Below, piece after piece: positions 3,781 to 50,929 of a stretch of DNA of 64,000 bases; position 1 is the stretch's first letter; each line of letters begins with the position of its first letter. Below the pieces are notes generated by a model. It did not search any database, had not been told where the DNA came from, and was given only the letters and a program-made list of their open reading frames with translations. The DNA is taken from positions 33,691-97,690 of the IMG/VR virus record IMGVR_UViG_3300021399_000127. One strand, given 5' to 3'. The stretch is from a virus. Taxonomy: Duplodnaviria > Caudoviricetes. The position numbers were made by a program, and so were the translations under genes.

Positions 3781-5124
3781 ATGGTATTAGGATACGAACA
3801 ACCTGTTGATATACCTGTATAGAGTATATACAACACAGATATGATGAAAACTTACCTCGGCGCCCTACAAAGAGATTATGAGTAGGGTGTTAAGGAGTTT
3901 AATGATTTTAGAGATAAATACGGAGACTTTATAAGTCCTATTGATGGTGCTTCTGAAGAGTACTATAACACCGGTGTTGGAGCTGTAATGAACGTTTATA
4001 ACAACCTTCGTAATCAAGGAATAGATCCAATTCGTAGTGTAGAAGGTAGAGGTGCCTTAATGCGTGCTATAAACGGCGTTGATAGAGCTAAATTAGCTAG
4101 AATACGTCAATCAGCAGATGCAGCTACAAAATACTTAGATGCTGTACAAAAATCAAAAGCAGCTAATACATTTGATCCAGTGTTAGAGGGTATTGCACTG
4201 AGAGCAGCAGGATTTGATCCAGAAGGAAATCTTACAGACGAGTAGCTCGGTAACAATCCTCTTGCTGGATTCGATAACAGCAAACTGTGGACAAGAACTA
4301 GTCCGGAACAAAAATTAGATGTTGTAAATTACTTTAACGACAAGTTTAGTAAAGTTCCACTTAGAACCAAAGAGTTTATAGATAGCGACGGGTTTAAACG
4401 TCAACAGTAGTATAGAGACGATAAGGCAATAGATGCAGTTGTAGATAATGCATTCGATACAAACAATCCTTCTATGAAGTTGATTGTTAACGAAAAGTTG
4501 GCAGAAATGAGACAGTTGGATCCTACTGCAACATTTGATCAAGCAGAGACTGCTGTTAAGGATCAACTCAAAGAACTAGGAAAGACAAACAAACCTTCTG
4601 AACTTGATCCTGGATCAGAACTTAAGTATAAAGAATATCAGCAAACACGACGTGCACGTATCAGTGCTTCTGGTAGTAGAGGAAGTAAGAATAGCAACTT
4701 TACCATATTCGACAACGCGTATGCCAATTATAATGAGAACGTAGGTTACGGTTCAGCTACATATGATCCAGCATACAGAATGAAAGAGGGTATAGGTCTT
4801 AAAACAGGAATCAATGGAAACCCTATTATATAGGGGAAACAATCAGGATGGGTTATAGATAAAAAATATGCGAATCAGCTTTATGTTAGAGATCACTAGA
4901 ATGGTGGTATAGTTAGAATAGTGAGAGAATACGGAAACAATCCTAACGCCAAAGGCCGTAGTGGAAGAATGCTTAACCTGAAATCGTTAGGACGTGTTGA
5001 ATGCGTCATTGTAGATGGATAGCTGCAATACTTTGATGTGTGCGAACCGAAGAACTTTAAAGCACCAGGATCTGAAATTTTGGTTCCTATCGAGAAGCAA
5101 ATGTACTCGGGTACTGTAAAATAA
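3781..5124 (+). CDS. Putative second virion cargo protein (447 aa, TAG=Gln)
   Basis: ATG 1 nt after the previous stop; joins track ORFs 3988 and 4474; ends TAA 5122-5124. Function from synteny only. Confidence 0.65.
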
Positions 5125-5136
5125 TAAACACTGACC

Positions 5137-8100
5137 ATGGCAGGTAAAAATATACGTATACAAAAACCACAGGGATTTGAATAGGATGTGGTTAAACAGG
5201 ATGCGACCGCTGTGCGATTTACTCAAGCACAACGGATAAGAGAAAAACAAGCATCTGGAAATTTTAATCAAGCAGACGACGCAGTAGCTAAGAGTGAAGC
5301 GTAGTCTGCTAGATATTACAACGAAAGAGAAAGAAAACGTAGAGAGGCTGCAGAAAACGCTAGAAAGCAAAAACAAAGAGAGATAGAGTTATACGAAAAA
5401 GCAGCAAAACGAAGACGTGCAGCAGAAAAAAGATTCTGGGAAGACAATTCTGCCGAAGAGGAGCAGAAGCGTCGACAGAAAGAAATGGACGAAGTTTCTG
5501 ACTATCTTGACTGGCTTGAGGAGCCTGAGCGCGAAAAGAAAGAAAAGGAGATAGAAGTCGAAAAAGAAGCATAGTTCATAAAGTGGAAAAATGACACTTT
5601 TGGAAAAATAGGAAGTACTGTAATAGGAGCTACACCTCTTGGATATTACAATCTTCGATCCATGTATTGGCTTAAAAACATGTTTGGAAGTGCCACAAAA
5701 AGCGGAACGGACACTCATATGGCAGCATTGTCAGACGATTTGTCGGAATTAGAGCTGGACAAAGAAGCGTTAGCATCTCATAAAAGAAGGACAGAGCTCA
5801 TACAAACCAAGAATGATCTTTAGTCTCAGTATGATGATCTTCTTCGTACTGTAAACTATAAAAAGAATGCTGGTACTAGCGCATCTTAGCAGGAGATGTA
5901 GAATCTTGAGGATCTTGGATCGCAGATAAACAACCTGCAAGCGCAAATAGACGATGAATAGCTTACTTATTTTGACAACCGGTATAAATCGTCATTTGTA
6001 GATAGGGCTGAGAAAAGCAATGGATGGTGGAGTTGGACTAAAAAGACAGCTGAGAATATAAGAGACGCTATCTTCGATGCAGCAGCTTCTATCACAGTAC
6101 TCGGTGGAGATCAAGACAGAGAACAAGCAAAAAGGGTTTAGTAGCGTAGAGCAGCAAAAAATGCTGAAAAATACGATCAAAACAGAGATTAGTATTTGTA
6201 GTCTTTAGGATTGGATACACTAAGCCCGACGTTGCTGTACCCTGGAGTCGATGCTATGGATCACAACGAGAAATTAGCTGAAAAATGGTATAGTGATCAA
6301 ATCGACACAGAAAGTAAGAAGGTTAGAGAACAGAGAATCAACACCGCTAGTCTGCAGGAAGATTTTAACAAGTGGGCACACGTTGACGATTGGTATAAAA
6401 AAGGAGAAGAGCTACATCAGAATGACAAATTATGGAGTCCTGGTTATTGGCAGTACTGCATGGCTGGAATGATAGGATCGTCAAACAGCTCGCCGTCTCA
6501 GATGATAGGGAACGCTATACAAACCGTCGGCATGCTTACAGGCCCAGAAGGAATGCTGCTTGCTGGTGCAGTATCAACTCCGTTTGATATAGCGGGAGGA
6601 TTAGAAGAAAATAAAACAGAAGCGACTGAAAAGCGTACATAGAACTTTAAAGATTCTATGGAACAGTGGGATCCTGAATTTAGGCAAGCCGTGATTGACG
6701 ATATGAGAAATCAAGCGTCTAAGTATTGGAAAAGATAGGGCATGTCTGACAAATGGATAAAGGAAAGATACTAGAGCGACGATAACTTAATACAAGATGC
6801 GTTTTCTGGCGTAGCAGATGGTGCGTTGAATGCACCTCTTGTTCGTCAGGCGCTGCTAGATTCACAACGTGGTTTACAAGCGTTAAAAGACGCAGATAAC
6901 ATTAGAACGTTGTGGGAAACTGGTAGAGAGAAAGCACTCCAATATGCACCACTAGGGTGGATGATGAAGAAAGGTGCCCGTGTGCTCAAAAGAGTTGGAG
7001 GTAAAGCTGGATCTTCTTTTATAAACAACGAAGGCAGACTGACTGTTTCATTTTAGAACAGTGCTAGTGTCGCAGAACGTACTGGACAGAAATACTCAAA
7101 CGGACTAATGTCGTCTATGAAAAAAGGTTATTCTGTTGCCCACGAGGCTGCAGAAACTGCTGGATTAGGAGGTCCTGCTGCAATAGCGTCTGGAATTATT
7201 GGTGCATCTGCAAACGGTGCTAGAAAGCTTGTGACAAATATGTCTCCTAGATTGGCTGAATGGAGCGACGATGTTGCAAAGACCCTTTCGTTTAAGTACC
7301 AAAAGGTGATAGACGTCATGGAAAAGAGCGGGCCTACGAGATTCTTACGGAGGTATGGTTTACCATACATGAAGTATGATCTTGCGCAAAGGTTTGCAGA
7401 AATGGGAGAAGAAGAAGGTCAATATATAAATTCCACAAAAGACTTTTCTACAAAGTACGGATATGACGGAATGACTTTCTTTGAGGGTATTGCAAACGAT
7501 ATGGAAACAGGATCGAGAATAGCAGAAGCATATCTTGCATTATTAGGAATAGGTCACAGTGAATTGTTAAACGATGAGGAATATTGGAAAAATGCGCAAG
7601 GTGGATTTGCATTAGGTGCATCTAATCCTGGATTCTCGCAAATAGTTACAGGATACAATGCCGTAATGGGTGCGAAGAACACATGGTCAGCATATGATGC
7701 AATACAACAATATTCTGCTATAAATCGAGAGGGAGACAGACTTATTCGTAGGTCTAATGAGTAGCTGGCAAACATAATAGTTAATGGTGATCCGAGGTCT
7801 GTAGTGAATGCTTTAGAGAAACAAAAGACGGAGGATTCACGTAGAGAGAATTCTAATTATAGGCAAGAAGACTATGATTACACAATCGAGTCAGCATAGA
7901 CGATTGCAGCACTGCATAAAAATAAAAAAGTACGATCGAGATTAGAAAAGATCGGAATAAAACCTGGCACAAAAGAGTATAATGTAGCCATGGCGGATCT
8001 TGCAAACCTTAGTATGCAAGATCGAGAAAATGATGCCGAAAGACAAGAATTGAATGCGGCATTAGCAGAAGCATATTAGAACAAAGAGTTTATAGAGAAC

Positions 8101-11100
8101 GTTGACAAGCTGTTTAAAGAAGCTTAGGATGCTCCTGATAATGTTGCAGAAAGAGCTAGAGCAATTGCGCAGCTTAGAAAGAACATAGAAGAGAATGAGA
8201 CTAAGATTGCAAAAGAAAACGGTATAGATACGAATTCTAAAGAATTTAAAGACGCACTATAGGAAAAGCAAAAGGCAATTGAAGAAAAGTTTGTAGAACA
8301 GTCAAATGCTAATTCTCGTGAAAATATAATACAGACGATTAAAGCTGTTAGTACAGGAAAGGCTTTGCTTAGAGCAAAAGCTGAGCACAATACTGCAAAC
8401 GATCTATTTGATTTTATCAAAAATAAAACTGGTGTTCAAACAAAAAGGCCTGACGCAAAATACGTAATTGGCGTTATTGACACACAGTTAAAACAGTTAA
8501 AGCAGAATATAAAAACAATAGATCCTGAATTCGACACAAAGATGTCGGATAGCGATTTCTTACAATATCTCGAAAGCATTGATATTCCACAGCTGAACAC
8601 TGATGGATTAGCAGATTTGGAATTAGCTAACGTGATGTTAACTGCAGACAAAGCAATTACGTCTAATTATTTGCAACAGTTCTATGGTATACAAAACCCA
8701 TAGGTAGACGAAAAAACAGGAAAGATTAAAGAATCAGAAGTAGTAAATGATTCTAAATATTCTAGGCGAATAAAAGCCATAATGGAAGCTGACAACACGA
8801 ATGATAAGATAAACTGGCTTGTCGCAGACGTGTTAACGGGAGATGCTGTTACAAAACTTACAGACGAAATAAACAAAGAAGAACGTGAGTTGTTCAAGCA
8901 ATCTAAAATAAAACAGGAAGAGATTGCTAAACAAAAAAATTAGGATGTTAAAAGTGGTACTGCAGGAAAACCTGTACCAGAAGATACTCCTGATATAAAA
9001 ACAGCAGATATAGAGAGCAAACCCACTCTGAAGCAAAAGCTTGACAAAAACAAAGAAACGTATAGAAAGAGAAAAGAAAAGGCTAAGTAGCAATGGAGAA
9101 AACGTCGTAACTCAAGCAGGGGAAAAGTACGTGCTTCTTTACTCGGACCACTTTAGGTTATTGTAGATATAGCTACAGATATAAGTTATCTTGCTGCCGT
9201 TGGAGCGTATAAGTTCTCTCAATTTGTAGATGATGTTGTAGACATATACGGACAACCAATAACCAGCGAGGACATGGGTTATGCTAAACAATAGTACATG
9301 AAGGCGCTAATTGCTGCAAGATTAAAAAATCCAGAGATCCTCGACAACTTAAGTACACTCGATGAAATACGTGACTACGGAGTAGTTGATAAAACACCAT
9401 ACATTACTCCAGGCTTAATAAAACTGGATCAGGAAATCGTGTTGCGAATGCAATTGTCAAATATGATGCAAAACAAGGACACTAAGTTATCTACATATTA
9501 TGACACAATAGCAACCGTAGACGGGGTAACCAGAGTGTATACAAACGATGCCGAGTACCAACTACAAATAGACGAGAGTTACAAGAGAGAGGCGAAAGAT
9601 ATAGCTTGTGAGTTTAAGAATGCTACAAACAACGAATCTGCGTTTTTGACTGTTTTATCAAAATACAATCTTGACAAAAAGTATTTAAAGTACCGAACAG
9701 TCGATGGTATTTCTGAAATGTTGGGTAGAACAGTTGTCACAAAAGGAATAGAGTTGAATCCTGATATAATGTTTGCAAGTGATATTAGACAATTAGCTAT
9801 TGCTGTATTCACATAGGATTATGACACTATAGACAAACTTGTAGACGCATACAAACCATCTGGTAGAAATTTAACGCCTGCTGTTGACGAGCTTCAAAAA
9901 TTGTACGAAGCTATAAATGATGCTGGAATGAATCCAGTATGCACAAACAGCAACATATATGGTATAAATAAGGACGGAAAAGCCGTCTCTTCGCAGCTCG
10001 ATTTGATTATTGTAGATTCTGCAGGGTATCTACACGTTATAGATGTATTGCAATCGTACAGAGATGTACAACAGAGGTGGAATCAACCGCCTGGAATGCC
10101 AGCCAGATATACAATTAGTCAAAGAGAAAAAGCTATGATGACTCAATTGACTAGTATTCTTGAGACATTATAGTTTATAAATATAGCAGATGTCAGTTGC
10201 TTACCGATAGTAGGAAATGCTGAGCCACATGTAGAGAAACGTATTCCTGTATACGATTCTCCAGAAACAGAGGTTTCTCAAGATACAACAGATCTCGTAT
10301 CTAAGATAAACGACGCAATAGACGATTACAATCAGTTAAAAGACGTCTGTGCTATCTATGATATTAGTTTTGTACCAATGTAGCACATTGCTGCAACAAC
10401 ACACGATACAAAAGCCGAACAAGAATCTTATATCACCAGCCTTTAGAGAAAACTCGATGAGATAAATACAACAAAGTTGTACGTGTTGAAAAATATAGAC
10501 GACACTGCAGAATCATATAACAAGTATGTGGAGCAGGTTGTTAATGATGGTGGAATACTGTTACCACAAAATGTTGAAGATAAAGTCTCTGTTTTAATAG
10601 ACTGTTGTCGTGAACTAGATGCAAAAATGGATGAGGTAGCCAACCTTACTCCAGACGATCAAGTATCCAAAACTGTATACGACCAGTTCTTGGTATGCGT
10701 ATAGGAAGCACAATATGCGTTAAATGATGTATTGATGGATCCAGACGCAAATAAAGCGTCTATTAGATCTGAACAAGAACTTATAGCAGCAGCACTTGAA
10801 AAACTAGCTACAAATAAAGAATATTTCGGACCATCTGCTGTAAACATAATTAGATGGTGGCTACACAAGTTTGATCCAGTAACACAAAATAACACTGCGT
10901 ACAAGAGTAACAGTGCTGCAGCAGGAATTACTGTTCAACAATACATCGATGTTATACAATCATGGCTTGAGACGTTACGAACACACATAAGACAAGACCT
11001 AGATGGTGATGTAAAACTATAGCAATGGTATTCTACTCTCTTAAATAATCATTTCACAGAACTCATTTAGAATGCAGAAGCATTCTTGAATGATACAGAG

Positions 11101-14100
11101 ATGGTGCCAGTCGACTTTAAAAATGAACTACAAGACTTAATAGTTCGAGCAAAAGGCGCCATATATTACTTTAATGATAGATACAAGGTTTAGCAGAACA
11201 CTGAAGTTTTAGGTGAACCTTAGAGCGAAGATGATGCCATTAACAGAATGGCGATACAGTGGATAAGTAAGTACGGGCAATCTGTAGCTTATTCTCCAGC
11301 TTTTGATAAGATGGTTGGTGGAGCTCAAATGGAGTAGAAGTACAGAAACTGGGCTATGATTTATCAAGAGATATCATAGAAACCAGACTTCTTAGAAAAA
11401 GCTATATTTAGCTTCTCTATATCAAAAGATAGCGACGATATAAAATTGTTTATAAAATACAATGATAAGAGTTGTTATCTTCCGTTTATCACAGATATCT
11501 CATCATATCCTGCCGGATCACTGTCACAAGAAGACATACAGTTAATAGAAACATCCAACAAGGCGAAACGTGACTTCTTTATTCCTAAAATGAAGAAGAT
11601 GATTCAATATGTCCAATCTCATCGTGGATGGAGGATTGAGTTTGGAAAATCATTGAATAAAGGTGAGATAATCTACGATACGGATCCAAATGCTCCGTTA
11701 CACAATGTACAAGAGTTTTTGTTTACAGGTGCTAACAGTAAGGATTTGTATACGGTACGCATGTCTGCAGAGGATGAAATAGGAATCCTCATCAAGCGTA
11801 ACCCAGGACAAGCTAATGAGACAGAAAAAGTGTACTGTGGAAAACAGCTTAACACTCCCATTCAGTCTTTCGATATGGATAGCAGAAAAGCTAAGTTATA
11901 TAGGTTTCATGCCGGAGCTCTGTTGTTTAACTTTGATACAGGAAATGGTGATAAGATTCCTGTACTACTAGACAGGGCTACCATAGGAGACAACATGGCA
12001 GAAAAGCTAGTCGACCTTATTTATCAAAAAATGCAGGGCCAGACGTATGCTGACGGATATGGTATAGACGACCTGTTGTCTATGGTTTTATACTTAGATA
12101 ATCCAAACAAGCGTGCATCACAGTATTCAAATACTAAAAACAAAATACGAATCGATGTAGCTAGTAAGTCTGTTATAATAGGATCTGAAGCTGGAATTCC
12201 TATCACCGATAGACAAAAGCTTGCACAGAGACTTTCATCCATGCAAATTGTAGTAGATGCAGAAATGTTGAATGAGAACATGCAGTCTACTACACACAGT
12301 GTAATCTCTTCTGCGAAACAGTATCTGAGATTCTAGGATAAAGTTGAACTTCCGAATGGTATTGTTATAAACAAAGATGATATAATACATTAGAACAGTG
12401 ATGGTTCTTATGGGTCTACATGGTTCGGATTCCTATTACGAAACAACCTTATTGGAACTAATGCTAAAAAAACTGGAGGAAAACAACTTAATATAATAGA
12501 CCCAAAGCTGGTTAAGGAAGGTAAGAGTAAAGCAGAGTAGGATGTGGAAGATGCAGAACGACAGAAACAAGCGACTGGTCGACTACAGGCCAATGCTGCA
12601 GATTTCTGGCAAAAATTAAGTCGCGGACCATCATTGCATATGGATGTCACCGATTACGAATCGATTTCAAGAACAGATGCTGAGATTAGTTAGTTCAAAA
12701 CAGATGCTGAAAAATATTTCGATCTTGTATTTGGGTCACATGACGACTTGTAGATGGATGATAAAGTGTACCCAGGCCTTGTTCCAGGAACTGTGGCTAC
12801 GGCATACTGCACATCTCAGTATGTATATCTGGCAACGTGCGCTCCAGAATCTGCGAAGTTCCATGAGGCATTCCACAAACTAATGGAACTTGTTTTACCG
12901 AACAGTCAAAGAGAATACTTTTATAAGATATACCGAGAGAAGTACGGCAAGAAAGTAGATCTTAGTGATGACAGAGATGTAGCAGAAGGTCTTACTGAAA
13001 TGTTCGTAGATTATATTGAACATGATCTTAAAGTAAAGAGATCTAAAGGGTTTGGAAAATTATACGCATGGTTTAAAAACATGTGGTTTAATGCTGGATT
13101 AACTATGAAGCTTGGTAGGCGTAACGCGAACGCATTCTATAAACTGTATCAAGACATGAATGCCGGAAAGTACGCAAACAAGCAGGTTGCTAAAGAAAAC
13201 ATAGAACGTTTCGATAGTGTGTTTGGAACAGAAGAGGGCTCTAAGCTTTTCTATACCGTAGAAGATCCAAAATTAAAAGGTTCGTCTTAGGATTTCAGAG
13301 AATTGACCGGAAAAGCTGATCTGAATGATCTGGTAGAGGCTCTTGGCGTGATATATATAAACTCTGTTGGAATATCTACATCAAACATTTTATTTGCTTA
13401 GGAGGTTCTTGAAACAGCTAAAATAGACGATAGAACAGCTCAGCGAATGCTTGACTATCTAAACAATAAAGTTAAGTTAGACGGAAAGACACTTGAAGAG
13501 TTATATCCTAAGATAGCAGAAGTATTTGAGCCTGAGTATGTAGACACTGATGAAAAAGACAAGGACGGCAATCCTATAAAAAAGGCTACTTATCCTAAGT
13601 TTAGGGTGTTGCAGTCTAGATTGTCAGAATACATATCTGAAACTCTTGGAGCTGATTATCATGGAAAGTTTAAGAATGACGAAGACGACGAGGATGAAGC
13701 TGTGCAAAAACAAAATATCGATAAGTTTGACAGAGCCTCATACGAATTCAGTAAACTGGATAGTGCATCTCAACGTGTTAAGCTATTCCTGTCTACAATA
13801 ACAAGAAAACTACCAAACGGTTTATATGACCACTCTAAGAATAGAACAGGATATGAAACATTTATACCAGCTAATGAGGTGTTCTCGAGGCTTGTGCATG
13901 ATTTTGGTGAGGTTCGATCGTTAGACGAGCTACTTCGAATGATGGAGTAGGCTCAGAACAAGAGTCCTATGCATAAAGATGTCTATGAAAAGTTTAAAAA
14001 AGCAATAGAAGACATGTACACGTTTGATGACAATGATAAACTTGTTGTGGATTATGACAAAGAGCAATTCGCAATTCAGTTCTACACGTGTATAAAATCA

Positions 14101-17100
14101 CAGGATATGAACTTCGTGCTGGCTAGAACTAAAACTGACAACAACAGAAAACATACAAACATTATTAGCGCCGGATCAGAAAGAGATGCTATAGCATATC
14201 CTAAGATGTGGAATTCTCTACTTACATCTGGTTAGGTTTCTATATTTAGTAGTGTAAGAACTAAACAAGGAGACTTATAGATAGTTAAAGGACATGAAAA
14301 CGACTTAAGAGACGTTGCTGCATTCTTTAGATCTGCAGAAGCAGTTTCGGCCAAAGGTGGATAGATAGAGATTGATGGCAAAATGGTGGATGCGTCTACT
14401 CCAGAAGGATTTGAACAGTTTAAACAAGAGATTGTAAAACAATTACATCGAATCGGAATAACATTCCCTTATGATGCTCTTGTACACATGTTGGAAGAGC
14501 AATTTACAACACCTGAATATGGAGGAAACTCAACAGAAGGTTTGTACGCATGGTTGACCCAACGAAATACTGCGTCCATCACGCCGTTCTTACAAGTTCT
14601 TGAATCATGGGTAGACAAAAATGGAAATGTAAATTCTGAAGTATCAAAGAAAGGCTACACATAGACTGGTTTCGTAAAAGCGCTTGGAAATGCGTATAGC
14701 AGATATACAAAAAGTACAACTCAGAGTATGGTGCAGGCGTTAAATGGAAAATAGTTATATTCTGTGTCTCAGAACTCATCACTGTCACACATAATAAATG
14801 CATTAAATACGCACGACAAGAACAACTACATCATACAGACATTGAGTAGATTCTCATACAATCTTTTAGATGAAGGTGGGCTGTTCTCTGGATCTATGAT
14901 TCTTAAGGAACTGATTACTAACAACAACTCTACGATGCATTTAAGACTTGCAACACATATTGGTTCCAGAACAGACAATAGTGGCGATTATGGTACTGAA
15001 TATTCTGAGGCACCCGAAGTCGACGACTACATGGCAAAATTAGCCTTCCTTTAGAGTGGTTACATTGTACCTTGTACATTCGCAGATAAAGGAACATACC
15101 AGGTTATACAAGGTGTCACATTGCCTGGAATGCAGTTTACAGAGCATTAGGATTCAAACGGAAACACTGTTGTAGATATAGCAAATGTACCTACTATAAA
15201 GAAATACGACGGAGAGTTTGTAATCATACCGTCCAATGCTGTTCTTGACAGGATGTTGGAGTATGCAAGAACGGAATACAGTGCTATACAGCAATGTATG
15301 GTTGATTTAGGATACAAAGACATTCCCGGATATAATGGTGTAAAAAGAGATCCAATACCAGAGCGTGCAAAGATAAAGAATTACCATACTAATAATGGTG
15401 ATGTAGAACCAAATGGTACAAGATTCTTATCTCTAAAACAAATAGTAGTTCCAACCAAAGATGGGCTGAAGACGATAAACCTCAACGACCCGAATAAGTC
15501 TAGCGTTGAATTGCTTAAAAAAGCGTATGATGAGTTCTTCTCTAAAGGTCTCGATGAACAAAGAGAAATAATGGCATTAACTCTTCACGTACAAACGAAA
15601 GAGGCTGTAGATTTCGCATTGTCTCGTGGTATCGTGGAAAGCGATAACATTACCATGATACAGAACGGACAGACTGTTGTTGCAGTAGATTCTACAGATC
15701 CTTCGAAGAAGTTAGAGACACTTGTAACAAAACATCTGGACGAACTATAGATAGCTACGTTAACAGAGGCTATTGTTAATGCTAAAAAATGGGGAAATAA
15801 TATAGCTGACTCACAAAAAAGAGAAGCGTATAGAAATGTCGCCAAATCGTTAGCGATAGCAAGTATTCTTGAAGATGCTACTGTTAAGTAGATTATGTCT
15901 ATAGAGGAGTGTTAGAGATTGTTCATAGGACATCCTGGTATGTTCAAAGTGAGATACAACAAGAGTGAAAGTAGAATAGCTGATGATACGTTCGACATAC
16001 AGAAGCGTATCGGCGGTATTGTCTCTACTGGTGACGACAACTACCTAAACGACGCACGTGGATTAAGAAGTGAATATCGTTGTGCAGAATTCAAAGACCA
16101 CGAAATAGGACTCCATGCTGATGTAATATCTCAACTCGAAGATGCGTTCGAAGAGTCTGCTACAAAAGATTTGTTGGCTTAGATTCTTTCAGAGCAGAAT
16201 AAGGAAAATCATTATTACGACGAAGAAAGCCCTTATTATGTTTTTGGTCTTAAGAGGAAAGAACTACAAAAAATAATAGACGAATTACCTGAAAAAGATC
16301 AAAAACGCATCAAAAAGGCTTCTAAAAAAGCAAAAGAGTGGGCCTAGGCGTACTCTAAAAAAATAAACGTAGCTGATGGTGCAGCATACATAACAGACGA
16401 AATGTGTGAGCTTATGCTCAGAGAGCGAGGAGCAGACAATGAGAATGTTAAAAAAGCATTCGAGATACTAAGAAGTGAAGACTCTGAACACTCATGGACA
16501 GAAAAAGCTGAAGCATATGAACTGATATACGAGTAGGCTGCAATTGTTGCAACTAAATATACGGCATATGGTGTCAGACCACATACTGTATCAGACAAAG
16601 ACGGTAATATACAAAAAGTTTCAGATGTAGCTGTACCATATTACAATAAGTTTGCGTTGTTCCCAATCTTCCCTTGTCTTGCAACAGGGCCTATGAAATG
16701 GGTCTACGAGAAGATGAAGAACGAAAGAGTAGACATGTTGTTTATGGATTCTGCAGTTAAGGTTGGTTCAGAAGGAGCTATCGAGTACGATCCAAAGGCG
16801 TTAGATAAACCATTCAATGTGTATACGCAACATATGGGATTCCTACGTAGGCAGCTTAACACAGATCCTGAAGAAGGTAATCGTATTGCTATCGGAACGC
16901 AGATGGTAAAGATTGTATTATCTAACTTAAGGTTAGATAGACAATACGGAGACATTAATGGAATTGAGCTTCTCACCTATTTTATGGAAAACATAAAACT
17001 ATTATCTATGATTGGTGAAAACGAAGTTAATGAAATGTTCTTCACCGATGGAGAAATAGATAATAAGAAGCTTAGTGAGTTCTTGAAGAGAGAGCTTTCT

Positions 17101-20100
17101 AGTAGAGGAGCAAATAACGCTGTACTTTCTGCAACAGATGTTGTATACAATGAAGACACAGGTAAGTTTGAGTTTGTTATACCTATGGCTGCTACAGCTG
17201 ATGCTAGGTGGATGGAATCTATAATAAGGTCTACTGTTTGTAAACGTGTTGTAGACATCACAACACCAGGAGGAAGCTTTGTTCAGAGGTCTGTATTTGC
17301 GATAGAAGCTGAAGATGGAGAGTCTTAGATCTTAGGCGACGATAGTCCTTACTATCATGGTCAAGAGTTGAAGATGATAAACGAGCACGGTTCAATGGAT
17401 TCTGTAATAAGTATAGACTATTTCTAGGACATGATACCGCCTCATATAAAAGAATTTAAAGCTCGTAGACAGTGGCTTATCGACAACAGAATAATAGGAC
17501 CTGATGCTGAAACAGCTACTGTTGCTTACCGTATTCCTACTCAGGCACAATCTTCGATTCATGCACTACGATTCATAGATGTCTTACCTGCTACACAAGC
17601 AGCTATCGTTCTTCCTAAGGAGTTTACAAAAATAACAGGATCTGACTTCGATATCGACCACCTGTACCTTGCAACAATGAATTATAAAAAGGTAAAGGAG
17701 GATATAATAACCGGAGGAGACGAAAACATTACTGGTGAATGGTTATCTCGTGAACCTTATGATTTGACAGAGAAACAACAGTGCGAAAACAATATCTTAG
17801 GAGTTATGATAAAACTGTTATGCGATATAGGCAATTCTATGTCCTCGCTGTATAGATCAATTGATAACGATACAGAGTTACCAAAAAGCATAGCAGACTA
17901 GATAAAACCAAGAAAGGAAGATAATAAGAAGCACTTGCCGTATAATTTCGGAACTCTACACGAACAAGTTAGACGTAAGAGTGACTATATGACAGGTAAA
18001 ACTGGAATTGGACCGTTTGCATTGAATGTGACGTCACACGTTCTTACATATCTGTACGAGGTCGAGTTTAACAATTCTAAGTTTACAAAGAACACAGATA
18101 TTAAGAGTTTGCATCATTTGTTTGACCATGATGACAATTATGTATCATCGTGGATATCAGCGTTTATTAATGCACACGTAGATATAGTAAAAGACCCATG
18201 GATAAGTAAACTGAACGTAAATCCGTTTACATACAACCATCTTTCGTTACTAGTTCGTAGTGGCGTTGGAAATTAGGCTTGTTGGATGTGTGCACAACCG
18301 ATAATAAGAGATTTAGCTGCAGCACAACAACAAGCACAAAGTGAGATACTTTCAGATGGTGGAACGTCTAAAGCTAAGCGCAAACAAGAGTTGTTTGATG
18401 CCGTACTTAAGAAGTATGGAATAACAATGTCGTGGAAAGAGCTGCAGGCTTGGGGTAAAAACAGGAATAATGTTGATGCAAGAATCGCAGCTACAAATAG
18501 TGTTTTAAGATATCGTACAGATGAGCTTATCGACCAAGCAATTAACCCTGACAACATAAACTACTCTTTGCAGAACGATGTTGTAAAAGCATTCGTCGCA
18601 CTGGAGCCATATGCACAGGGTTTGAGCAATCTTCTACAGTATACGAAAGTAGATACTCGTAAGTATGGAAAGAACTTCATCCAGATGCGTTGCTATTATG
18701 AAAAGTACTTGAACGCTTTCTATGGTGATAACGATCATACAATCTACAATATCGACAGTGTTCATAGAATGCTAGAAGGTAGCTGGATAGACCAGAAAAC
18801 AAGATCTGCTATACAATTACCGTTATATATAATGAGTCAACAGACGTTTGACGCCAACAAATAGTTCTACAATACTATATATAAATTATGTTGGGCTATT
18901 ACTCAAGACAGATCGTTGTTTACCGAAGATCTAATGGAGGCTGTTTCGCAGCAATACAGAACAGCGATAAAACTCAAGTATATGCACGAATATGCAACGC
19001 AAGTTCTCGGAATGACTGATAAGGATATTCGAATGCTGTTCTTTGGAAAAGATCAAGACGGATCACGTTCTATGGCGTCTAGATTAAATGGATTAAAGGC
19101 AGCCGTTAAAACGTATCCTGAATACCAAAGACTTGCTAACAACTATCTTATAGAAAAGTTATTGCCAAAAACCAGAGAAGATGATACTATAACATCTGAA
19201 GGAAAGTTGGCAAAAAAACCTATGTTCATAACAATATCTCAAGATGTCAACAACGAAAGAATGAATGAGAACGCGTTCTCTGATGCATGGGTTGAGTTAC
19301 TTAATGACGAAGATCCTTATGTTAGAAAATTTGCAGAAGATCTTGTTGTTTATGCAATGTACACATCTGGAGAATATCAGGGATTTGATAAGATTGCAAA
19401 ACTTATTCCACCAGAATGGTTGCGTGGCGATACATAGAAGACACCTGTTATAATAGACGGAGTTGCTAACAACTCATTCTCTGATTTTATAAAGCATGCT
19501 CTTACGTCATCATATGCTCAGAGTTTAGCTAGCAATGATATGTAGAACTCTATAGTATCACACCTTCAAGACAAATTCTTTATCGTACAAACTATACCAC
19601 AGCAAACAGCAGATGGAAAATAGAACTTCTTGTCTGTAGATACTGACAGGTCTGTCTTAATAGGCTCATCTGAAGTGTTGGATGAAGATGGAAACGCTCC
19701 TACGTTTATAAAGGTTAAAAAGCGTTACGCTTCTAACAAGAGACAGTCTTCGTATAATTTGTACAGATATGTTGGTAGCAATAATGGTTTTCCAATATAT
19801 GTGTATTGTAAAAGTGTTGGATACAAGAACGGCACCGAGAATATATATGAGTACTGGTTCGATATGTAGTACGAGGAAAATGACAGTAAAATCTCTAAGA
19901 AGCAGAACAAGTTTGAGGATACACGACGTATAGTGCTTTAGGCGATTAACGATCTGTTTGATTATACATACAGCGGCAAGAAAGAATCGTTAGATTAGTT
20001 CTTTGAAAGAGCGTCGGTCTATGCTTCTCAGGTATATGATAAAATAGATCCTAACGGTGGTGTTCAAATGCCTAGTTTGGTTAGAAAGAAGAGCGTATGG

Positions 20101-22854
20101 GTTAAAGCTAGAAGTAAGTACTCAAGAGAGTCTGTTGAGAACGATCCTAAAACTCTATATATATTCACAGATAACACAGATAGAACATCTGGTGGTGTAC
20201 AATACGGAGACGGATGGTATAAACAGAAGTATGGTGCAGGAGGTTTCGGAAGTTATAGTAATCCGACTACAGCTCAAATTCGTGGACTCGATAATGCTGC
20301 TCCTATCAGTACTATGAGATATATGTATTCTAAACACGGGTTTACACATCCTGGAAAAGATCCTAATAGTTTGGCTAGGTGGCATGATTCAGACTTCGAA
20401 GAGTTTAAGAAAGTGTTTGACGACGAGATAGCTCAAATAAAAGCATTGTGGGACACTGGACGATTTGAAAAGATTGTATCTCCACAAGGTGATGGTTTCT
20501 TCGGAAGTAGACTTACTGATATAAGTAAGGCACGTACTCCTAAGATATACGAATATATGAATCAAGAGTTCGAGAAATTATATCAGTATGTAAATAGTGG
20601 TTCTAGTAGACAGACAGAAAGTGTAGACACAAACACTACATTCGAGTATGCTAGAACGGCTGATGGAAAACCTAACTATGAGGTTTCTTCAAGAGGAGAT
20701 GCTAGATTCTCTGCTATGAATGCTACATTTGCTCCTGGTACGACATTGTTTGGTCACGACGTTGGTGGTAGAACAATAGAATCTGTATATCAGCATGGTG
20801 TTAAACAAGGAGACTGGTCTACTGATAACAACAACAAGACTGGTGCTCCAAAAGACAAGACTATAATAACTGGAAATACAGAGGATGACAGCTATGTTCA
20901 AGGATATCTCCCATTGTGGGAAGAATGGGCTAAGCAAAATACACAGTTGATGTAGGAACTTAGACAAAACGCTAGTGGTAAGGTTCTCACTGATATGTTT
21001 GCATCAACAGCCGTATCACAAGCTAGAGCTTTGGCTGACATTTTAAATAACAATCAGTCTGCTACTTCATCTGCTACAAATACACTCCATGGAAGACAAG
21101 CTACTCATGAGGAAGAACTTGCTACGTTGAACAGTGGTAAGACAATATTGTCTAATGAGGAGCTTGCTGCTTGGAATAAGAATGGTGTTGGAAAGAATCC
21201 TAGAATTCTTGTGGCTACAGAGAGAACTGATCCTGCATTCCATTCAAAAGAGATAATAGACATCATAAACGGAGTAAAAGGTGTTACTAATAGAAAGTAT
21301 ACCCAAATAACCAAAGAAGAATATGATGCTCTGCCTAACGGTCAACGGTGGTACAAACAAGCTACAAAACAGTATTTTAGAGTCGATGTTACAAATCTAA
21401 GCAGCAGTGATTTTGCAGGATTGTACATCATAACAAAGCATGATGGTCTCCCTATGAGAGACATATTGGCTACGAAAATACCAAAGTTAATACATTTCAG
21501 TATTACTGGTCTCGGTGGTACTACGTATGAACCTGGTGTCATGAAACCGAATGACTTGTTGGATAGAATCGGTGACTATATAAAGCAAGGGTTAGATCCA
21601 GACATGATAACTGTACGAATAGATCCTATAGTACCTGGTGTAACAACTCCTTCTATGATAGAAAACATAGTCAAGAGGGCTTCTGAACTAGGAATAAAGA
21701 GAATACGATTCTCAATAATGGATGCTTACGGTAACACTGTTAGAAAGATGAACGCTCTAGGATATTCGTTTGACTAGAAGTATCATTGGGATATACAAGA
21801 CGGTGTCAATCGCATGGTTGTAAACGATGATGTCAAAGACTCTATTGTCAAGTTCATGTTGTCAATGAAAGACAAGTACGGTGTTACACTCGGAACTTGC
21901 GCAGAAAACATTCATGTTGATGGAATATCCAACGAAGGATGTTTATCTGTAGATGGTGTAAACAGAATGCTTGGATCGAACATAGAAGATCGTGGCACCG
22001 ATAACAATAATCAACGAGTAGACTGTTCTTGTTATGGTGGAAAAGTCGACGCTTTGGCGTATGATAAGTATTGTGGAAGTGCGTGTGCCTATTGTTATGG
22101 AAAGCACGAAAACGATGCTGTTCATCAATACTACAATTAGGACGGAACGCTTAAACAAGATAAATTTACAATATCTGGATATACTGACGAACAAACACTT
22201 CCACAACAGCCGCAGACTAATAAGTATGTCAATCATAGTGGTGGAGCTATTGGTTCTGATTACGAATGGGGACAGTAGGGCTAGAAGTACGGAGTAACCT
22301 CTAATCATTACTATCACGGAGCTAAGACGCCGCACGGAAATATTGAAATAACAGAATAGGAATTCGAAGAGGGGAAACAACATGTAATGATTGCCAACAG
22401 GACGTTGCACAGAAGACCTGAACGATATTTGAATTTGTTAGCTAGAAACTACATGCAAGTAAAAAATTCTGATGCTGTATTCGCAATAGGACATCTCGTA
22501 CGAGGAATAGTTGACGGAGGTACTGGTTGGGCTGTACAGATGGCAATAGATGATGGAAAACCTGTATATGTATACGATCAACAGAGATTGCAGTGGTATA
22601 AGAATATCAACGGTCAGTGGTCTGAATCAGAAACTCCAACATTGACTACAAATTTTGCAGGAATAGGAACTCGTCAGATAAACGAAGCTGGAAAGCAAGC
22701 AATAAAAGACGTGTACAGAAAAACGTTCGATGAACAAAATGGTGTCGGAAACAATAATATTTAGAAACCAAGTACCGGATATGCATCGTCTATATTCTCA
22801 GAAGAAGAAATGAGACTTGGAGAGCAGTATAAAAACATTTGTAAAAATTAGTAA
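5137..22854 (+). CDS. Giant virion RNA polymerase polyprotein (~5905 aa, TAG=Gln) with zincin domain and C-terminal accessory domains
   Basis: 26 track fragments from 6211 to 22764 share one frame and end in TAG; the gaps I translated contain no TAA/TGA; ends TAG-TAA at 22849-22854. Motifs YRIPTQ and GSDFDID (17644-17658, the crAss-like RNAP catalytic motif) and HEAFH (12862-12876). Confidence 0.88.
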
Positions 22855-22855
22855 T

Positions 22856-25800
22856 ATGAATATTTGTCCAAATTTACATAACAAAAAAGTTAAAGAATAG
22901 TTCGAAGAACTAGTCTCTGTGTTTGATGAAAATTAGGCGTATTATATTTGGGACAAAACAAACGGATATGGATTAGACTTGGCTCCAAACGGAGCTGAGT
23001 CTAAACTATTCGGTGATTTATTATAGTTTTGTAACGGTAATAGGGCAGATGCTCTTAAGATGAAGGCTACTACGCTATCCAGTAAGTTTCCTAAAGCTGA
23101 CTCGATCTAGAAACAAATTGTAGACCACTTAAAGAAGCTGAAGATAAAGGTGCACGGAATAGAAGATATGAAGAAGTATCTTTCTGCTCGTGGATTTAGT
23201 TCTTTACAGCAGTTTATAGGTAAGAAGGCTAGAGCTTAGTTTGAGCAGCAACTTAGAAAAGCACGTCCTGACATGTCTGATGCTGAGATTAAATCAACTC
23301 TTGACTTTCTTCATTCTTTGGAGGACAACAAGGAAAACAATGCTTACATAAAGACAGCAGTGAGGTGGGTGATGAATAGATCGCTCACATTGCCTGAGGA
23401 TAATACTAAAGCTCGTTAGGTTTTCGATGAAGCACGTAAAAGACACATAGATGTATAGAAGTATCCTACACTAAGTGCTCTTATTGCTTCTGATGAAATG
23501 AAGCCTAAAGAGAAAGAGAAGCCCAAATTCGATCCAGACAAGGCTAAGACATTCAGCAACAAACGCACAATTACGACAGAAGGTGGTAGAGTATTCACTG
23601 TATACGATGTAGAGAATACTGAAGAAGGACAACGAGAAGTTTGTCATGCTCTTGCTGCTCACTACAAAACATCTCCTTGGTGTTTATCTACATTTACTGC
23701 CACAGGAGAACCTACTGAATCTGCTAAGTATTACTGGGACCATTATAATACACTTCCAAGAAAGATTGCTTATGAAAATGGAAAGCCAGTAGCTTTTAAT
23801 AGCGATTATGGATCCCCTTATAATCTTTCGTTTAGAGGTATGGATGTGGTGTACTACCCGAATTCAGAACGTGGTAAGTATGGATTTAAACTTAACCCTT
23901 ATGAGCCACTGGTGCTACAATTGATCCAAGAAGGTATTGTGCGCAATATATTTGACGACCAAGATGATGTCACACCTGTATATCGATTTACAGGTAAAGG
24001 AGAACGTCTTATTGAGAAATCAGTAAGAGAAGCTTGGTGGGACATGGAAGATAGGTTTGCACAATTGAAGTTGTCAGACAATATTGTAGCCGACCCTTCT
24101 AATGGCGGAATTGCTCCTGATTTTGATCAAGATTAGGAGTTTGATGACGATCTTTTTCTTCCAGTGGATCCTGATTATGACCCTTATGAGGATTTATTTC
24201 AGTCAGAAACTGAATATGAACTAATCAATATACTGCAAGACATTGTACTACTAAATTTATATCGTGTAGAGAATTAGGATTATAACTTAGATCCAGTTTG
24301 GATTGTAAACGAGTATTCAAATATTTATTTCCAAGAATTAATAGCACAAATATCAGACTTTGACTGGGGAAACCATCGTAATCCTGTAGAAGCCGCTTAG
24401 AGTATCGTATAGAATAACAACGTAGAGTAGCATATACGTGAAACGATAAACGAATATTATACTAGACTACCTCAGCCAGCACCACCACTACAAAACGGAC
24501 TTACTGAGCCCATACCTGCTCCTGTAGCTCCTGTAGCACCAATCGACTTAGGTCCAGGTTTGCCTTTCTATCTCACATCTAGTGGTGAGATATACGGTTT
24601 TGTAACCCTTGAAGGCGATATCTATCTCGATGAAAATGTAATATCTCCAGAACATCCTATCCATGAGTATACTCACTTATGGGACAGAGCTGTAGCAAAA
24701 AAGAATCCAAAGCTTTGGAAAAAAGGTGTAGAGTTAATGAAGAAAACCGATCTGTGGGAAGAGATTCTTTTCGACAAAAACTATGGCAAAAAGTGGACGT
24801 CTAATCCAAATATAACACCTGAAGAATTAGAGTTTCTTGTTGCATCAGAAGTGCATGCTAGAATTGTTGGAGAGAAAGGTCAGTAGGTATTAGATAGAAT
24901 AGCTAAACAGAAAGGTGGAGATAGTATAGTATCAAAACTTAAGGAATGGGCATTCCAGTTCTGGAAAACTATAGCATAGACTTTTTCTCCATGGACACAA
25001 GAACAGATAGACAGATTATCTTATGGAGATTTTGTAAATATAGTACTCAGAGATTTTTCTCAAGATAAAAATGTTTTGGAGCTTGATGAAAACGGAGAAA
25101 TGTCTGCACGAAATGTAATTTGTGCCGATCCGTTCTATGGAAGATCTGTTACAAGCAGCCAACAAACAAGGTGTATAATCAGTAAGCTGTAGTAGCATTT
25201 TGGAGACCTTATATAGTATAATGACAAAACAAAGAGCTTTTATTTATACTATTAGAACCATCCTAGTTTTAGAAAACAAAACGCACTTACAGAAGTTCAG
25301 CTCATAGATCAGGTCATACAATATTGTAAGTATTTCTTTGACAAGATACCTATAATTCGACGTGTTGGTTCAGTGTTGAATCCTAATACTGGTAAGTTTG
25401 AACCGCATCAACAACCTGCAATTCTTGGATTTGCTCCTAATAAAAGCATATTCGACAACTGGATAGATAAAGAGATGACTCTTTATGACAACAAATGTCT
25501 TATAGAACAGTTCTTAGAGCAAAGATTCCCTGAAACACAGGTACGTTGGATTACACGAGAAGAACAGGCTAGTCACAATTCGAATGCGAACGCTTGGTAT
25601 GACATTGAAAATAATTGTGTGTGTCTTGTTATGGATGCTGTAAAGTCAGATAATATAATAGAAGAGTTCTTACATCCTATAACACTGATGATGTAGTGCT
25701 CCAGTCCGTCTGTATTTGATGACTTATACGATTAGGCTGTGGAGAAATATCCAGAAATCCGTAAGCAGGTGGATAAGTTATATGGAAACGAAGATGAATT

Positions 25801-50871: not shown

Positions 50872-50929
50872 GTCTTTGCAGGTTTACACCCAAAGGGTGG
50901 GCACTTTCGCAGTTCCCGCGTGACTTAAA

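Follow-up and report, generated by a model that had tools for sequence, protein, structure and literature searches.

A gut-type crAss-like phage has a virion RNA polymerase that ends in a tail of four enzyme-like modules. The last 930 residues of this 5,905-aa protein are self-contained add-ons: a DUF7831 domain (D1), a predicted NADAR-fold domain (D2), a DUF1848 radical-SAM-like domain (D3) and a DprA-like SLOG-superfamily domain (D4), fused to the polymerase in one frame when TAG is read as glutamine (Table 1). The fusion, which the first-pass annotation of this DNA had described, is confirmed. It is probable that the polymerase brings counter-defence or DNA-care enzymes along into the cell; the fuller reading, that the tail enters with the DNA and acts on NAD/ADP-ribose adducts or signals as well as on damaged DNA, stands an even chance of being right. 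While the idea of an injected multi-domain "polyvalent protein" is already known, its crAss-like phage case is new, and we found no published report of it in these phages. The window, the 64,000-nucleotide stretch analysed here, comes from a complete 97.7-kb crAss-like genome that uses TAG as glutamine in its late genes and has its nearest references in the Suoliviridae, Oafivirinae.

Table 1. The giant gene and the features of its product (window coordinates)
Feature	Position	Strand	Basis
Giant late-gene ORF, 5,905 aa with TAG=Gln	5137..22854	+	Single frame under recoding
RNAP-homologous module and end of conserved core, aa ~3787-4918	16495..19890	+	IAS virus BLASTP; end of cr130/cr131 alignment
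Catalytic DFDID motif, aa 4170-4174, within TGSDFDIDHLYL	17644..17658	+	Alignment to annotated IAS-virus RNAP
D1, DUF7831 domain, Rossmann-like alpha/beta	20074..20637	+	PF25176, E 3.4e-8, above cutoff
D2, NADAR-fold domain (predicted), phrog_9995 family, no Pfam model	20629..21075	+	phrog_9995, E 1.7e-28
D3, DUF1848 domain, radical-SAM-like	21106..22170	+	PF08902, E 1.1e-19, score 71.8 (cutoff 30.5)
CX3CX2C triad CGSACAYC, aa 5646/5650/5653, presumed 4Fe-4S/SAM site of D3	22072..22095	+	Invariant C338, C342, C345 (alignment numbering)
D4, SLOG-superfamily domain, DprA-like	22177..22737	+	phrog_768, E 2.1e-12
C-terminal 38-aa extension and stop	22738..22854	+	ORF end AAT TAG TAA

The giant ORF contains 76 in-frame TAG codons, no TGA and a single TAA, which is its terminator; the next gene starts with an ATG at 22856, one base past this stop. 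At 38% G+C, chance cannot account for a run of ~5,900 codons that lacks both TAA and TGA. The phage encodes a tRNA with the anticodon CTA, tRNA(CUA) (genome positions 1945-2019), and relatives carry glutamine opposite the TAG codons of the window at 12.6% of aligned positions as compared to a background of 3.6%, with a glutamine profile resembling that of true CAA/CAG codons. Reading of TAG as glutamine has been shown by proteomic work in crAss-like phages, with peptides spanning both TAG codons and apparent code-11 start codons (PMC9523058). As judged by the tail translation, the frame runs on for ~930 aa past the polymerase core through four blocks with S/T/Q/N-rich linkers (e.g. SGSSRQTESVDTNTT and NNNQSATSSATNT), just as the first-pass annotation had it. 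Its further claim that the fusion is invisible to code 11 gene calling holds for the genome of the window, in which table 11 yields many short ORFs (including 20068..20955, 20995..21777, 21814..22140 and 22387..22764), but not for RefSeq relatives, which already have a fused giant CDS annotated. The TAG codons are distributed over the modules as none in D1, one in D2, two in D3 and three in D4, and thus D2, D3 and D4 are not makeable as intact standard-code proteins. With 76 TAG codons to be read and the tail made last, the yield of the full-length polypeptide (~660 kDa, as estimated from its length) should depend steeply on the efficiency of suppression, which counts against the entry reading given above.

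The ~3,700 N-terminal residues are followed by the RNAP module and, lastly, by the tail. Searches of Pfam, PHROG and PDB with the first 5,000 aa returned no sequence match. As had been proposed, the protein upstream of the tail includes an RNAP of the crAss type: BLASTP matches to IAS virus gp056, annotated 'RNA polymerase', are colinear (aa 3787, 4097 and 4714 matching 693, 1099 and 1818), and aa 27-4918 are 35% identical to cr130_1 gp79 (5,801 aa; RefSeq name 'DprA-like DNA recombination-mediator protein'). The alignment with cr130/cr131 stops at aa ~4918, placing the end of the conserved core near aa 4920. When eight crAss-type RNAPs are aligned, the G, D, F, D and D of the catalytic motif are invariant; crAss-like vRNAPs have DFDxD as their catalytic motif (bioRxiv 10.1101/2020.03.07.982082).

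We assign D1 to DUF7831, a family of 746 representative clusters, mostly within giant proteins; many of the 55 D1 homologs are stand-alone proteins of ~154 aa. The Macro-like character originally suggested for D1 is only weakly supported: with the predicted structure (pLDDT 79.8) the best structural match is the DarG macrodomain (Z 5.2) and Macro domains make up ~20 of the 50 matches listed, but Foldseek, the Pfam Macro model and a viral structure library gave no Macro signal. The NADAR-like nature of D2 stands at the level of the predicted fold (pLDDT 88.1): the three NADAR structures 8bat, 8bau and YbiA 2b3w score Z 9.6, 7.5 and 7.4, as compared to 3.6 for the next match, and 8bat is also the top Foldseek match. 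At the sequence level no NADAR signal was found by Pfam or by hhalign against canonical NADARs (probability 0.4%, no better than controls). The D2 family (38 homologs; the stand-alone form is ~127 aa) has invariant E46, Y49, Q50, K54 and D117, with a Glu-to-Lys spacing of 8 residues as opposed to 7 in published NADAR enzymes.

The two remaining assignments of the first-pass annotation, DUF1848 and SLOG, are both backed by family matches. In addition to the Pfam DUF1848 model, D3 matches the PADLOC RTasDUF1848 model (E 5.4e-23) and, weakly, PA0069 radical SAM, PylB and DNA-repair photolyase-like radical SAM families; seven cysteines, the CX3CX2C triad among them, are invariant across four RNAP-fused DUF1848 copies. 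D4 belongs to phrog_768, which is annotated DprA-like, and has sub-threshold Pfam matches to Nuc_deoxyrib_tr, cpYpsA, DNA_processg_A and LDcluster4. Its loops HSGGAxGSD and GGTGxAVxMA are invariant, and it is 51% identical to aa 985-1162 of the vRNAP of the N4-like Klebsiella phage Pylas.

To place the tail among its relatives, we surveyed 92 crAss-type RNAP loci. At least one tail module is present in 26 of these, in 25 cases sharing one ORF with the DFDxD motif, and in varying order and position; the other 66 have none, and L014, the closest core relative, has no tail. The expected cassette-like variability of Crassvirales RNAP C-termini is thus observed. Each module type is also fused in a standard-code phage (D1 in L066 and L087; D2 pieces in L074; D3 in L037, L096 and L097; D4 in L008-13, L070 and L088), and therefore the fusion is independent of recoding. 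In L036 and L030, both of which use the standard code, the tail contains a Pfam cpYpsA SLOG (E 2e-23), NADAR above cutoff (E 2e-13 and 3e-16) and an SF1 helicase, which occupies the same tail position in L034. The four-module tail exemplifies an accessory zone that varies among crAss-type virion RNAPs, with modules gained, lost and reordered between lineages, and in other lineages the set adds canonical NADAR, cpYpsA-SLOG and SF1 helicase. Outside RNAPs, DUF7831 occurs together with canonical NADAR (P0132) and with cpYpsA SLOG (P0100, P0113, P0041). Among cultured phages, free-standing D2 homologs are encoded by gene 5 of N4-like phages, in the early block 1.8 kb from the left end, and amid head and structural genes in phiKZ-like phages.

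The crAss vRNAP is packaged in the virion and accompanies the DNA into the cell; it transcribes single-stranded but not double-stranded DNA (PMC7886860). Because of this, we infer that a co-packaged tail would reach the cell before any phage gene is expressed, where it would act upon damaged DNA and upon adducts or signals that derive from NAD/ADP-ribose. The first-pass proposal extends to a blunting of NAD/ADP-ribose-based immunity, with DarTG and Thoeris-type systems as candidate targets. DarT toxins attach ADP-ribose to ssDNA and lower transcription (PMC13309987), and the phage NADARs known as AdfN remove the ADP-ribose mark and defeat DarTG1 (PMC11825919). D2 may similarly strip base-linked ADP-ribose off the ssDNA that the polymerase uses as template. 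Since DUF7831 and SLOG recur with NADAR in other proteins, both could process or bind related nucleotide derivatives, and DUF1848 may carry out a radical-SAM reaction on DNA. If D3 passes unfolded through the tail channel, its Fe-S cluster would need rebuilding, which argues against immediate activity. Earlier work had predicted Macro, NADAR and SLOG domains that are packaged in virions, as well as polyvalent proteins that are injected (PMC9503650, PMC5512222).

It is conceivable, if unlikely, that the modules aid the polymerase on DNA rather than countering defence. The task of the DprA-like SLOG – in other lineages also of the SF1 helicase – would then be to open, bind or hold the single-stranded template, and that of DUF1848, NADAR and DUF7831 to repair or trim lesions where the DNA end enters. 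In vitro, gp66 uses ssDNA and not dsDNA as template, and the SLOG subfamily of D4 is also found inside the unrelated N4-type vRNAP, which likewise uses single-stranded promoters. The DprA-like annotation of phrog_768 and the SF1 helicases sharing one tail position in three loci fit handling of the ssDNA template equally well, and the weak photolyase-like matches of D3 point to repair. However, with 66 of the 92 RNAPs lacking all four modules and L014 lacking a tail, the modules are dispensable for transcription; the co-occurrence of NADAR-fold, SLOG and DUF7831 domains outside polymerases suggests a shared small-molecule or adduct chemistry, and known phage NADARs are counter-defence enzymes.

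We regard as quite unlikely that the tail works late in the producing cell, e.g. to modify or proofread phage DNA or nucleotides prior to packaging, with the fusion serving co-expression only and the tail possibly cleaved off and left unpackaged. The giant gene is late and TAG-recoded, the late-expressed AdfM of phiKZ, an anti-DarT macrodomain, guards packaging (PMC13309987), an Fe-S domain would be more easily loaded in the producer cell, and IAS virus and cr131_1 have separate or split genes for the regions concerned. Co-expression alone, however, is insufficient to explain repeated independent fusion at several positions on two unrelated virion RNAP types; furthermore, we found no protease domain or cleavage signal, and a D2 homolog is among the first early genes of N4-like phages. 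Finally, that translation terminates at a TAG further upstream and begins anew at ATG 20068 to yield separate small proteins is scarcely credible: while a table 11 ORF begins there, shortly after TAG 19996, and D1 has no internal TAG, the TAG codons within D2, D3 and D4, the tRNA(CUA), the published peptides and the uninterrupted RNAP ORFs of standard-code relatives with the same modules all speak against it.

The fused tail can be compared with known systems. UG25 reverse-transcriptase defence candidates have a DUF1848 partner (bioRxiv 10.1101/2021.12.02.470933) whose PADLOC model D3 matches, but there DUF1848 is a separate host protein beside a methylase-RT fusion, not one domain within a phage polymerase as here. 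With phi14:2 gp66 and the crAss001 RNAP-associated cargo (Drobysheva 2021; Bayfield 2023, PMC10172136) our protein has in common the DFDxD motif, its place within the late 'transcription block' and the expected packaging and ejection. While gp66 is ~2,200 aa long (its IAS homolog 2,159 aa) and has no such accessory enzyme domains reported in the texts consulted, here one 5,905-aa ORF comprises upstream proteins, RNAP and tail. Orthologous TAG-recoded giant genes with subsets of the modules are present in RefSeq as cr130_1 gp79 (SLOG then D1), cr272_1 gp23 (D1, DUF1848 then SLOG) and cr113_1 gp38 (SLOG alone), with no annotation beyond 'hypothetical protein' or 'DprA-like DNA recombination-mediator protein'; the NADAR-fold module is absent from all of them, as is the complete set of four.

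The AdfN proteins that T4-like, T5-like and Vequintavirinae phages encode are orphan NADARs countering DarTG1 (PMC11825919). D2 resembles them in its predicted fold (the same three PDB structures, at Z about 9), in an E-x-x-[FY]-Q helix that retains an invariant Glu and Lys, and in lacking the N-terminal extension of DarG1. Unlike the free AdfN proteins, it forms part of a virion polymerase as one of its domains, with an activity predicted from fold, and it belongs to the separate family phrog_9995, with no sequence similarity to canonical NADARs detectable by hhalign. A further parallel is provided by the polyvalent proteins that phages and conjugative elements encode, among them N4-like vRNAPs with a fused ADP-ribosyltransferase (Iyer, Burroughs, Anand, de Souza and Aravind 2017, PMC5512222): in both cases a very large virion-associated chain, with a virion RNAP as carrier, links several autonomous enzyme domains, which differ from relative to relative and for which action upon entry is predicted. 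The text of that paper contains no SLOG, radical SAM, DUF1848 or crAss, whereas the set described here is DUF7831, NADAR-fold, DUF1848 and SLOG. The carrier here is a two-barrel crAss-type RNAP rather than the T7-like N4 type and, unlike in the ADP-ribosyltransferase-type fusions, its modules are predicted to remove or process marks, not to add them.

Under the standard code, the plus strand between window positions 5137 and 22854 reads as a string of short ORFs. With TAG read as Gln, the same stretch forms a single ORF of 5,905 aa with 76 in-frame TAG codons, no TGA and one TAA, the terminal one; this giant ORF closes with AAT-TAG-TAA, and the ATG of the next gene lies at 22856, one base past the stop (TAG, TAA and this ATG fall within window 22849–22858). 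The downstream gene is itself a TAG-recoded ORF of 2,678 aa, ending at 30892. The virus record to which the window belongs is complete (97,690 bp) and has direct terminal repeats, and the layout of the window is crAss-like: late genes on the plus strand are TAG-rich, and minus-strand genes are in the standard code. ARAGORN detects no CTA tRNA within the window; a canonical-looking tRNA with this anticodon (labelled ‘Pyl’ by the program) is located just outside, at genome positions 1945–2019, has a D-arm resembling that of the phage tRNA-Gln(TTG) at window 57158–57229, and is likely an amber suppressor. A permuted tmRNA (tmRNA*) with the tag peptide GNINNIVDYTNVA was also called by ARAGORN, at window 50856–51268 on the minus strand. 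Opposite the window’s TAG codons, the commonest residue in relatives is Gln (12.6% vs a 3.6% background, i.e. 3.5-fold), followed by Glu and Lys, and in the alignable relatives the substitution profile at TAG codons is that of true CAA/CAG codons. Reading of TAG as Gln has been shown by metaproteomics in two crAss-like phages (PMC9523058). The single ORF, the tRNA(CTA), Gln opposite TAG and the metaproteomic precedent together confirm the first-pass observation that the polymerase frame runs on past its core without TAA or TGA; the pairing of a putative suppressor tRNA with Gln at the TAG positions of homologs is the signature of late-gene recoding to code 15 (TAG=Gln).

Over its first 5,000 aa, the giant ORF has no Pfam, PHROG or PDB sequence match; with the Pfam and PHROG scans blank, RNAP identity was taken from BLAST to annotated crAss RNAPs. 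In BLASTP, aa 27–4918 are 35% identical to gp79 (5,801 aa) of the crAss-like reference phage cr130_1; similar matches were found in cr131_1, cr272_1 and cr113_1 (all four phages are Suoliviridae), and four colinear segments match gp056 of IAS virus, annotated ‘RNA polymerase’, with GSDFDIDHLYL of the giant ORF aligned to GTDFDIDKLFL of gp056. DFDxD, the catalytic motif of crAss-like virion RNAPs (bioRxiv 10.1101/2020.03.07.982082; PMC7886860), is invariant across eight crAss-type RNAPs, the annotated IAS enzyme included, and is found in the giant ORF as DFDID at aa 4170–4174 (nt 17644–17658; context TGSDFDIDHLYL, aa 4167–4178). A regex match to DxDGD at aa 1954 is not the catalytic site. The gene order of the late transcription block is the same as in cr130_1, cr272_1 and cr113_1. 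As judged by homology, the upstream part of the giant ORF is a crAss-type (gp66-like) virion RNAP, the conserved core of which ends near aa 4920. The first ~3,700 aa (window 5137–16494), where Pfam, PHROG and PDB sequence searches found no match, are conserved only among Suoliviridae-like giants and probably correspond to the separate ‘RNAP subunit’ genes of other crAss families.

The 930-aa tail that comes after the core carries four modules, D1 to D4. A search of the tail sequence against PDB gave no match, NCBIfam yielded nothing useful for any of the four modules, and PADLOC matched D3 alone.

Modules of the tail in the window, and module order in surveyed crAss-type RNAP or module-bearing loci (L-handles) and in annotated crAss-like reference phages
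Feature	Family or module order	Position (nt)	Strand	Evidence
D1	DUF7831 (PF25176)	20074–20637	+	Pfam, 33.8–34.2 bits vs cutoff 27
D2	NADAR-fold, phrog_9995, no Pfam family	20629–21075	+	PHROG and structure model
D3	DUF1848 (PF08902)	21106–22170	+	Pfam, E 1.1e-19, 71.8 bits vs cutoff 30.5
D4	SLOG/DprA-like	22177–22737	+	phrog_768 ‘DprA-like’, E 2.1e-12
L016, L038	D1, D4			
cr130_1	D4, D1			
cr272_1	D1, D3, D4			
L018, L098	D3, D4			
L099	D4, D3			
L007, L088	D4, upstream of RNAP			

The first-pass assignments of the third and fourth modules, DUF1848 radical-SAM-like and SLOG, are supported by profile matches. For D3, the Pfam alignment is above cutoff and covers positions 42–261 of the 262 in the PF08902 profile, and the module matches the PADLOC model for the DUF1848 protein that accompanies UG25 reverse transcriptases (E 5e-23; bioRxiv 10.1101/2021.12.02.470933). 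D3 has the C-terminal cysteine cluster of its family: seven Cys are invariant in four RNAP-fused copies, among them the triad in CGSACAYC (aa 5646–5653), which has the CX3CX2C spacing predicted to ligate the 4Fe-4S cluster in the radical SAM superfamily. Weak matches to the radical SAM protein PA0069 (E 0.026), PylB (E 0.23) and a PHROG DNA repair photolyase family (E 0.005) point, weakly, to radical-SAM families of the DNA-repair-like kind. D4 is recognised as a probable SLOG domain by its PHROG match and by four sub-threshold Pfam matches, Nuc_deoxyrib_tr (E 0.0018), cpYpsA, DNA_processg_A and LDcluster4, which we take to be SLOG-type families of one clan. Its two glycine-rich loops, HSGGAxGSD and GGTGxAV, are invariant in seven sequences and presumably are the equivalents of the SLOG nucleotide-binding loops. 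A PDB profile search with the D4 alignment returned noise only.

That the second module is NADAR-like stands at the level of the fold and not at that of sequence family membership. In VIA-align, the D2 model (pLDDT 88.1) matches 8bat with Z 9.6 (126 aa aligned, rmsd 3.2), 8bau with Z 7.5 and 2b3w with Z 7.4, the next structure scoring Z 3.6; these three library NADAR structures align over 121–126 of the 139 D2 residues. Foldseek also placed 8bat at the top, but with an E-value of 0.13. As modelled, the fold of D2 is YbiA-like NADAR. The Pfam NADAR model PF08719 matches neither D2 nor any of the 33 family members, comparison of the D2 family with four segments of canonical NADARs by hhalign gave a non-significant probability of 0.4% on a thin template alignment, and a PDB profile search with the D2 alignment gave only noise. 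T4 AdfN was first identified as a NADAR by evidence of the same type and strength (PMC11825919). E46, Y49, Q50, K54 and D117 are invariant in the 33 D2-family sequences, with the Glu and Lys located in an E-x-x-Y-Q helix. The invariant Glu, Lys and Asp resemble published NADAR catalytic residues (PMC11543638): the catalytic Glu and phosphate-binding Lys are E43/K50 in PnNADAR and E36/K43 in T4 AdfN, although the spacing in D2 is eight residues instead of seven, its Lys being one residue further along. D2 relatives also exist as stand-alone proteins of ~127 aa.

The first module had been called Macro-like, a label that we do not adopt: D1 is DUF7831. All 45 aligned relatives match PF25176, and D1 has many stand-alone relatives of ~154 aa. 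A deep profile search with D1 recovered 746 representative clusters, the best matches being mostly proteins of 1,000–6,200 aa in which the position of D1 varies. When the AlphaFold model of D1 (pLDDT 79.8) was compared by Foldseek to PDB, there was no match (best E 0.056, CobU), and the viral structure library BFVD returned only DUF7831 proteins, from phages and giant viruses; a protein atlas search found only D1’s own family. Among these BFVD matches are proteins of Tupanvirus, Hyperionvirus and Yasminevirus and of Caulobacter and Rhizobium phages: members of DUF7831 occur both in phages and in giant viruses that infect eukaryotes. VIA-align did rank the DarG macrodomain first for D1, with Macro domains in about 20 of 50 rows, but all scores are at Z ≤5.2 with rmsd >4 Å, a range that by the tool’s own warning can be non-specific. 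No match to the Pfam Macro models turned up in D1, in any of the 45 relatives or in the phage genome translated in six frames, and a PDB profile search with the D1 alignment gave noise. With the Foldseek, atlas and Pfam searches lacking a Macro signal, ‘Macro-like’ may serve as a lead, not as a result.

What could such a tail do? Packaged in the virion, the crAss vRNAP reaches the cell together with the DNA, and it accepts single-stranded DNA as template but not double-stranded DNA (PMC7886860). DarT toxins ADP-ribosylate single-stranded DNA, lowering transcription and replication (PMC13309987), and phage NADARs undo this modification of guanine and overcome DarTG1 (PMC11825919). The best-supported reading, which we hold at about even odds, is that the tail travels with the polymerase and, ahead of phage gene expression, acts on ADP-ribose-type adducts or NAD-derived signals by removing or processing them, and perhaps likewise on DNA lesions. 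Delivery of the tail into the recipient cell along with the DNA we infer only from its fusion to the RNAP. Against the proposal, reaching the tail takes 76 suppression events, the Fe-S domain would have to regain its cluster once ejected, and neither D1 (as Macro) nor D2 (as NADAR) has sequence-level family membership. That the modules instead help the polymerase, an enzyme of single-stranded DNA, to handle its template seems to us rather improbable, and somewhat less probable still is that the tail has its role late, in the producer cell, and is perhaps cleaved off.

Since every close relative is also TAG-recoded, the main risk was that the fusion is not real. With the whole tail as query, a scan of IMG/VR for close relatives returned SLOG-bearing loci only, and the alignment around the catalytic motif was needed for a broad sample; baiting IMG/VR with it yielded 80 loci. 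The code was chosen per locus, and all ORFs were scanned with HMMs of the four modules. At least one module is present in 26 of 92 crAss-type RNAP loci. In 25 of the 26, module and DFDxD motif share an ORF; only in IAS virus are they apart, D1 forming the start of a distinct protein encoded immediately before the RNAP. Every module type is found in some uninterrupted standard-code ORF: D4 in L008–L013 (~1,160 aa past the motif), L070 and L088, D3 in L037, L096 and L097, D1 in L066 and L087 (N-terminal to the RNAP), and D2 as fragments in L074. With these modules inside uninterrupted standard-code RNAP ORFs, and in-frame TAGs within D2, D3 and D4 of the window itself, separate translation of the tail from the ATG at 20068 is very unlikely. 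The first-pass claim that the fusion is invisible to code 11 applies to the window, with its short standard-code ORFs, but not to RefSeq, which carries orthologous giant CDSs, one of them named ‘DprA-like’; the fusion is already deposited, but uninterpreted.

The anatomy of the tail is solid, and the survey generalises it. Among the surveyed RNAPs, the distance from the motif to the end of the ORF has a floor of ~800–950 aa and reaches ~2,900 aa. The closest core relative, L014, is without a tail, and all four modules occur together in the window only; module order and content differ among relatives, so that the cassette-like variability of RNAP C-termini, which the first-pass annotation proposed to look for, is borne out. 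In the standard-code loci L036 (12653–16087) and L030 (12653–15598), the tails consist of a canonical Pfam cpYpsA SLOG domain, then a canonical NADAR (Pfam, above cutoff) and then an SF1 helicase (AAA_30/PIF1/UvrD_C_2), and the tail of L034 is a helicase alone. Other long RNAP tails contain no Pfam family. Two standard-code crAss-type RNAPs, L071 (12551–18925) and L093 (12620–18142), have post-core tails of ~2,100 and ~1,800 aa, respectively, with no Pfam match. In proteins other than polymerases, DUF7831 occurs as a fusion to canonical NADAR (protein P0132) and to cpYpsA SLOG (P0100, P0113 and P0041), and because of these fusions DUF7831, NADAR and SLOG seem to work together. The contigs that came from a genome-collection scan were all crAss-sized, lay inside MAG bins and offered no clue to the host. 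L096–L099, of 26–99 kb, are in bins labelled Anaerovoracaceae, Anaeromicropila, Bacilli and Ruminococcus. Their giant ORFs carry DUF1848 50–60% identical to D3, in two cases the crAss RNAP motif and TAG recoding are present as well, and the contigs have the appearance of crAss-like phage sequence that ended up in bacterial MAGs on binning.

More tentatively, crAss vRNAPs could be modular delivery platforms, with tethered NADAR-fold, DUF7831/SLOG and DUF1848 modules acting on template, nucleotides and DNA in the first moments of infection, ahead of any phage gene expression: the NADAR-fold module would clear base-linked ADP-ribose from the polymerase’s own single-stranded template, DUF7831 and SLOG would process released or signalling nucleotide derivatives, and DUF1848 would repair DNA by radical chemistry. 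If true, phages and giant viruses would share, in DUF7831, a new family of enzymes that process ADP-ribose or nucleotides; both DUF7831 and phrog_9995, uncharacterised as they are, are candidates for new ADP-ribose-related enzyme families. crAss-like phages are the most abundant human gut viruses, and annotation of their giant ‘transcription block’ proteins is sparse. The shuffled NADAR-fold, SLOG, DUF7831, DUF1848 and helicase modules may offer concrete, testable functions for several thousand dark-matter residues, in architectures that code 11 gene calling conceals. The tail also suggests that DNA ADP-ribosylation or NAD-derived signalling may be an important defence in gut Bacteroidota-type hosts.

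In the papers searched, DUF7831 is not mentioned and DUF1848 only in passing, and nothing relevant came up on Crassvirales or crAss in combination with NADAR or ADP-ribose. Virion-packaged Macro, NADAR and SLOG domains and injected polyvalent proteins had been predicted before (PMC9503650, PMC5512222). The texts of PMC5512222 and PMC9503650 do not mention crAss-like phages, nor does the former mention SLOG, radical SAM or DUF1848. Links to other phages exist at the level of individual modules. D4 is 51% identical to aa 985–1162 of the virion RNAP (3,819 aa) of Klebsiella phage Pylas (L002, NC_049444.1), in which the SLOG is internal (locus 12001–12534, inside the vRNAP CDS 9049–20508). Pylas is N4-like and its vRNAP is of the T7-like type, unrelated to the crAss type; judging from this similarity, the same accessory domain is common to two unrelated kinds of injected polymerase. 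Among cultured phages, free-standing D2 homologs are found only in phiKZ-like and N4-like phages and in Sphingomonas phage PAU. In the N4-like Achromobacter phage Axy04 (L094, 1797–2186), the homolog is gene 5, in the early block beside a ‘DNA repair protein’; in phiKZ (L095, 5001–5330), it lies between gp082 and gp083, among head and structural genes, with only part of the match annotated, as the 38-aa ORF PHIKZ082.1. Both placements fit a function needed at or just after entry, and phiKZ-like and N4-like phages, too, inject a polymerase. Polyvalent injected proteins were defined from N4 vRNAP fusions, for instance to an ART domain (PMC5512222), and the crAss tail would carry this idea over to another virion polymerase, of unrelated type. 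Like polyvalent proteins (PMC5512222), the tail combines several effector-type domains, which we consider autonomous since D1 and D2 also exist as stand-alone proteins, in one presumably virion-associated polypeptide, the architecture of which varies among relatives.
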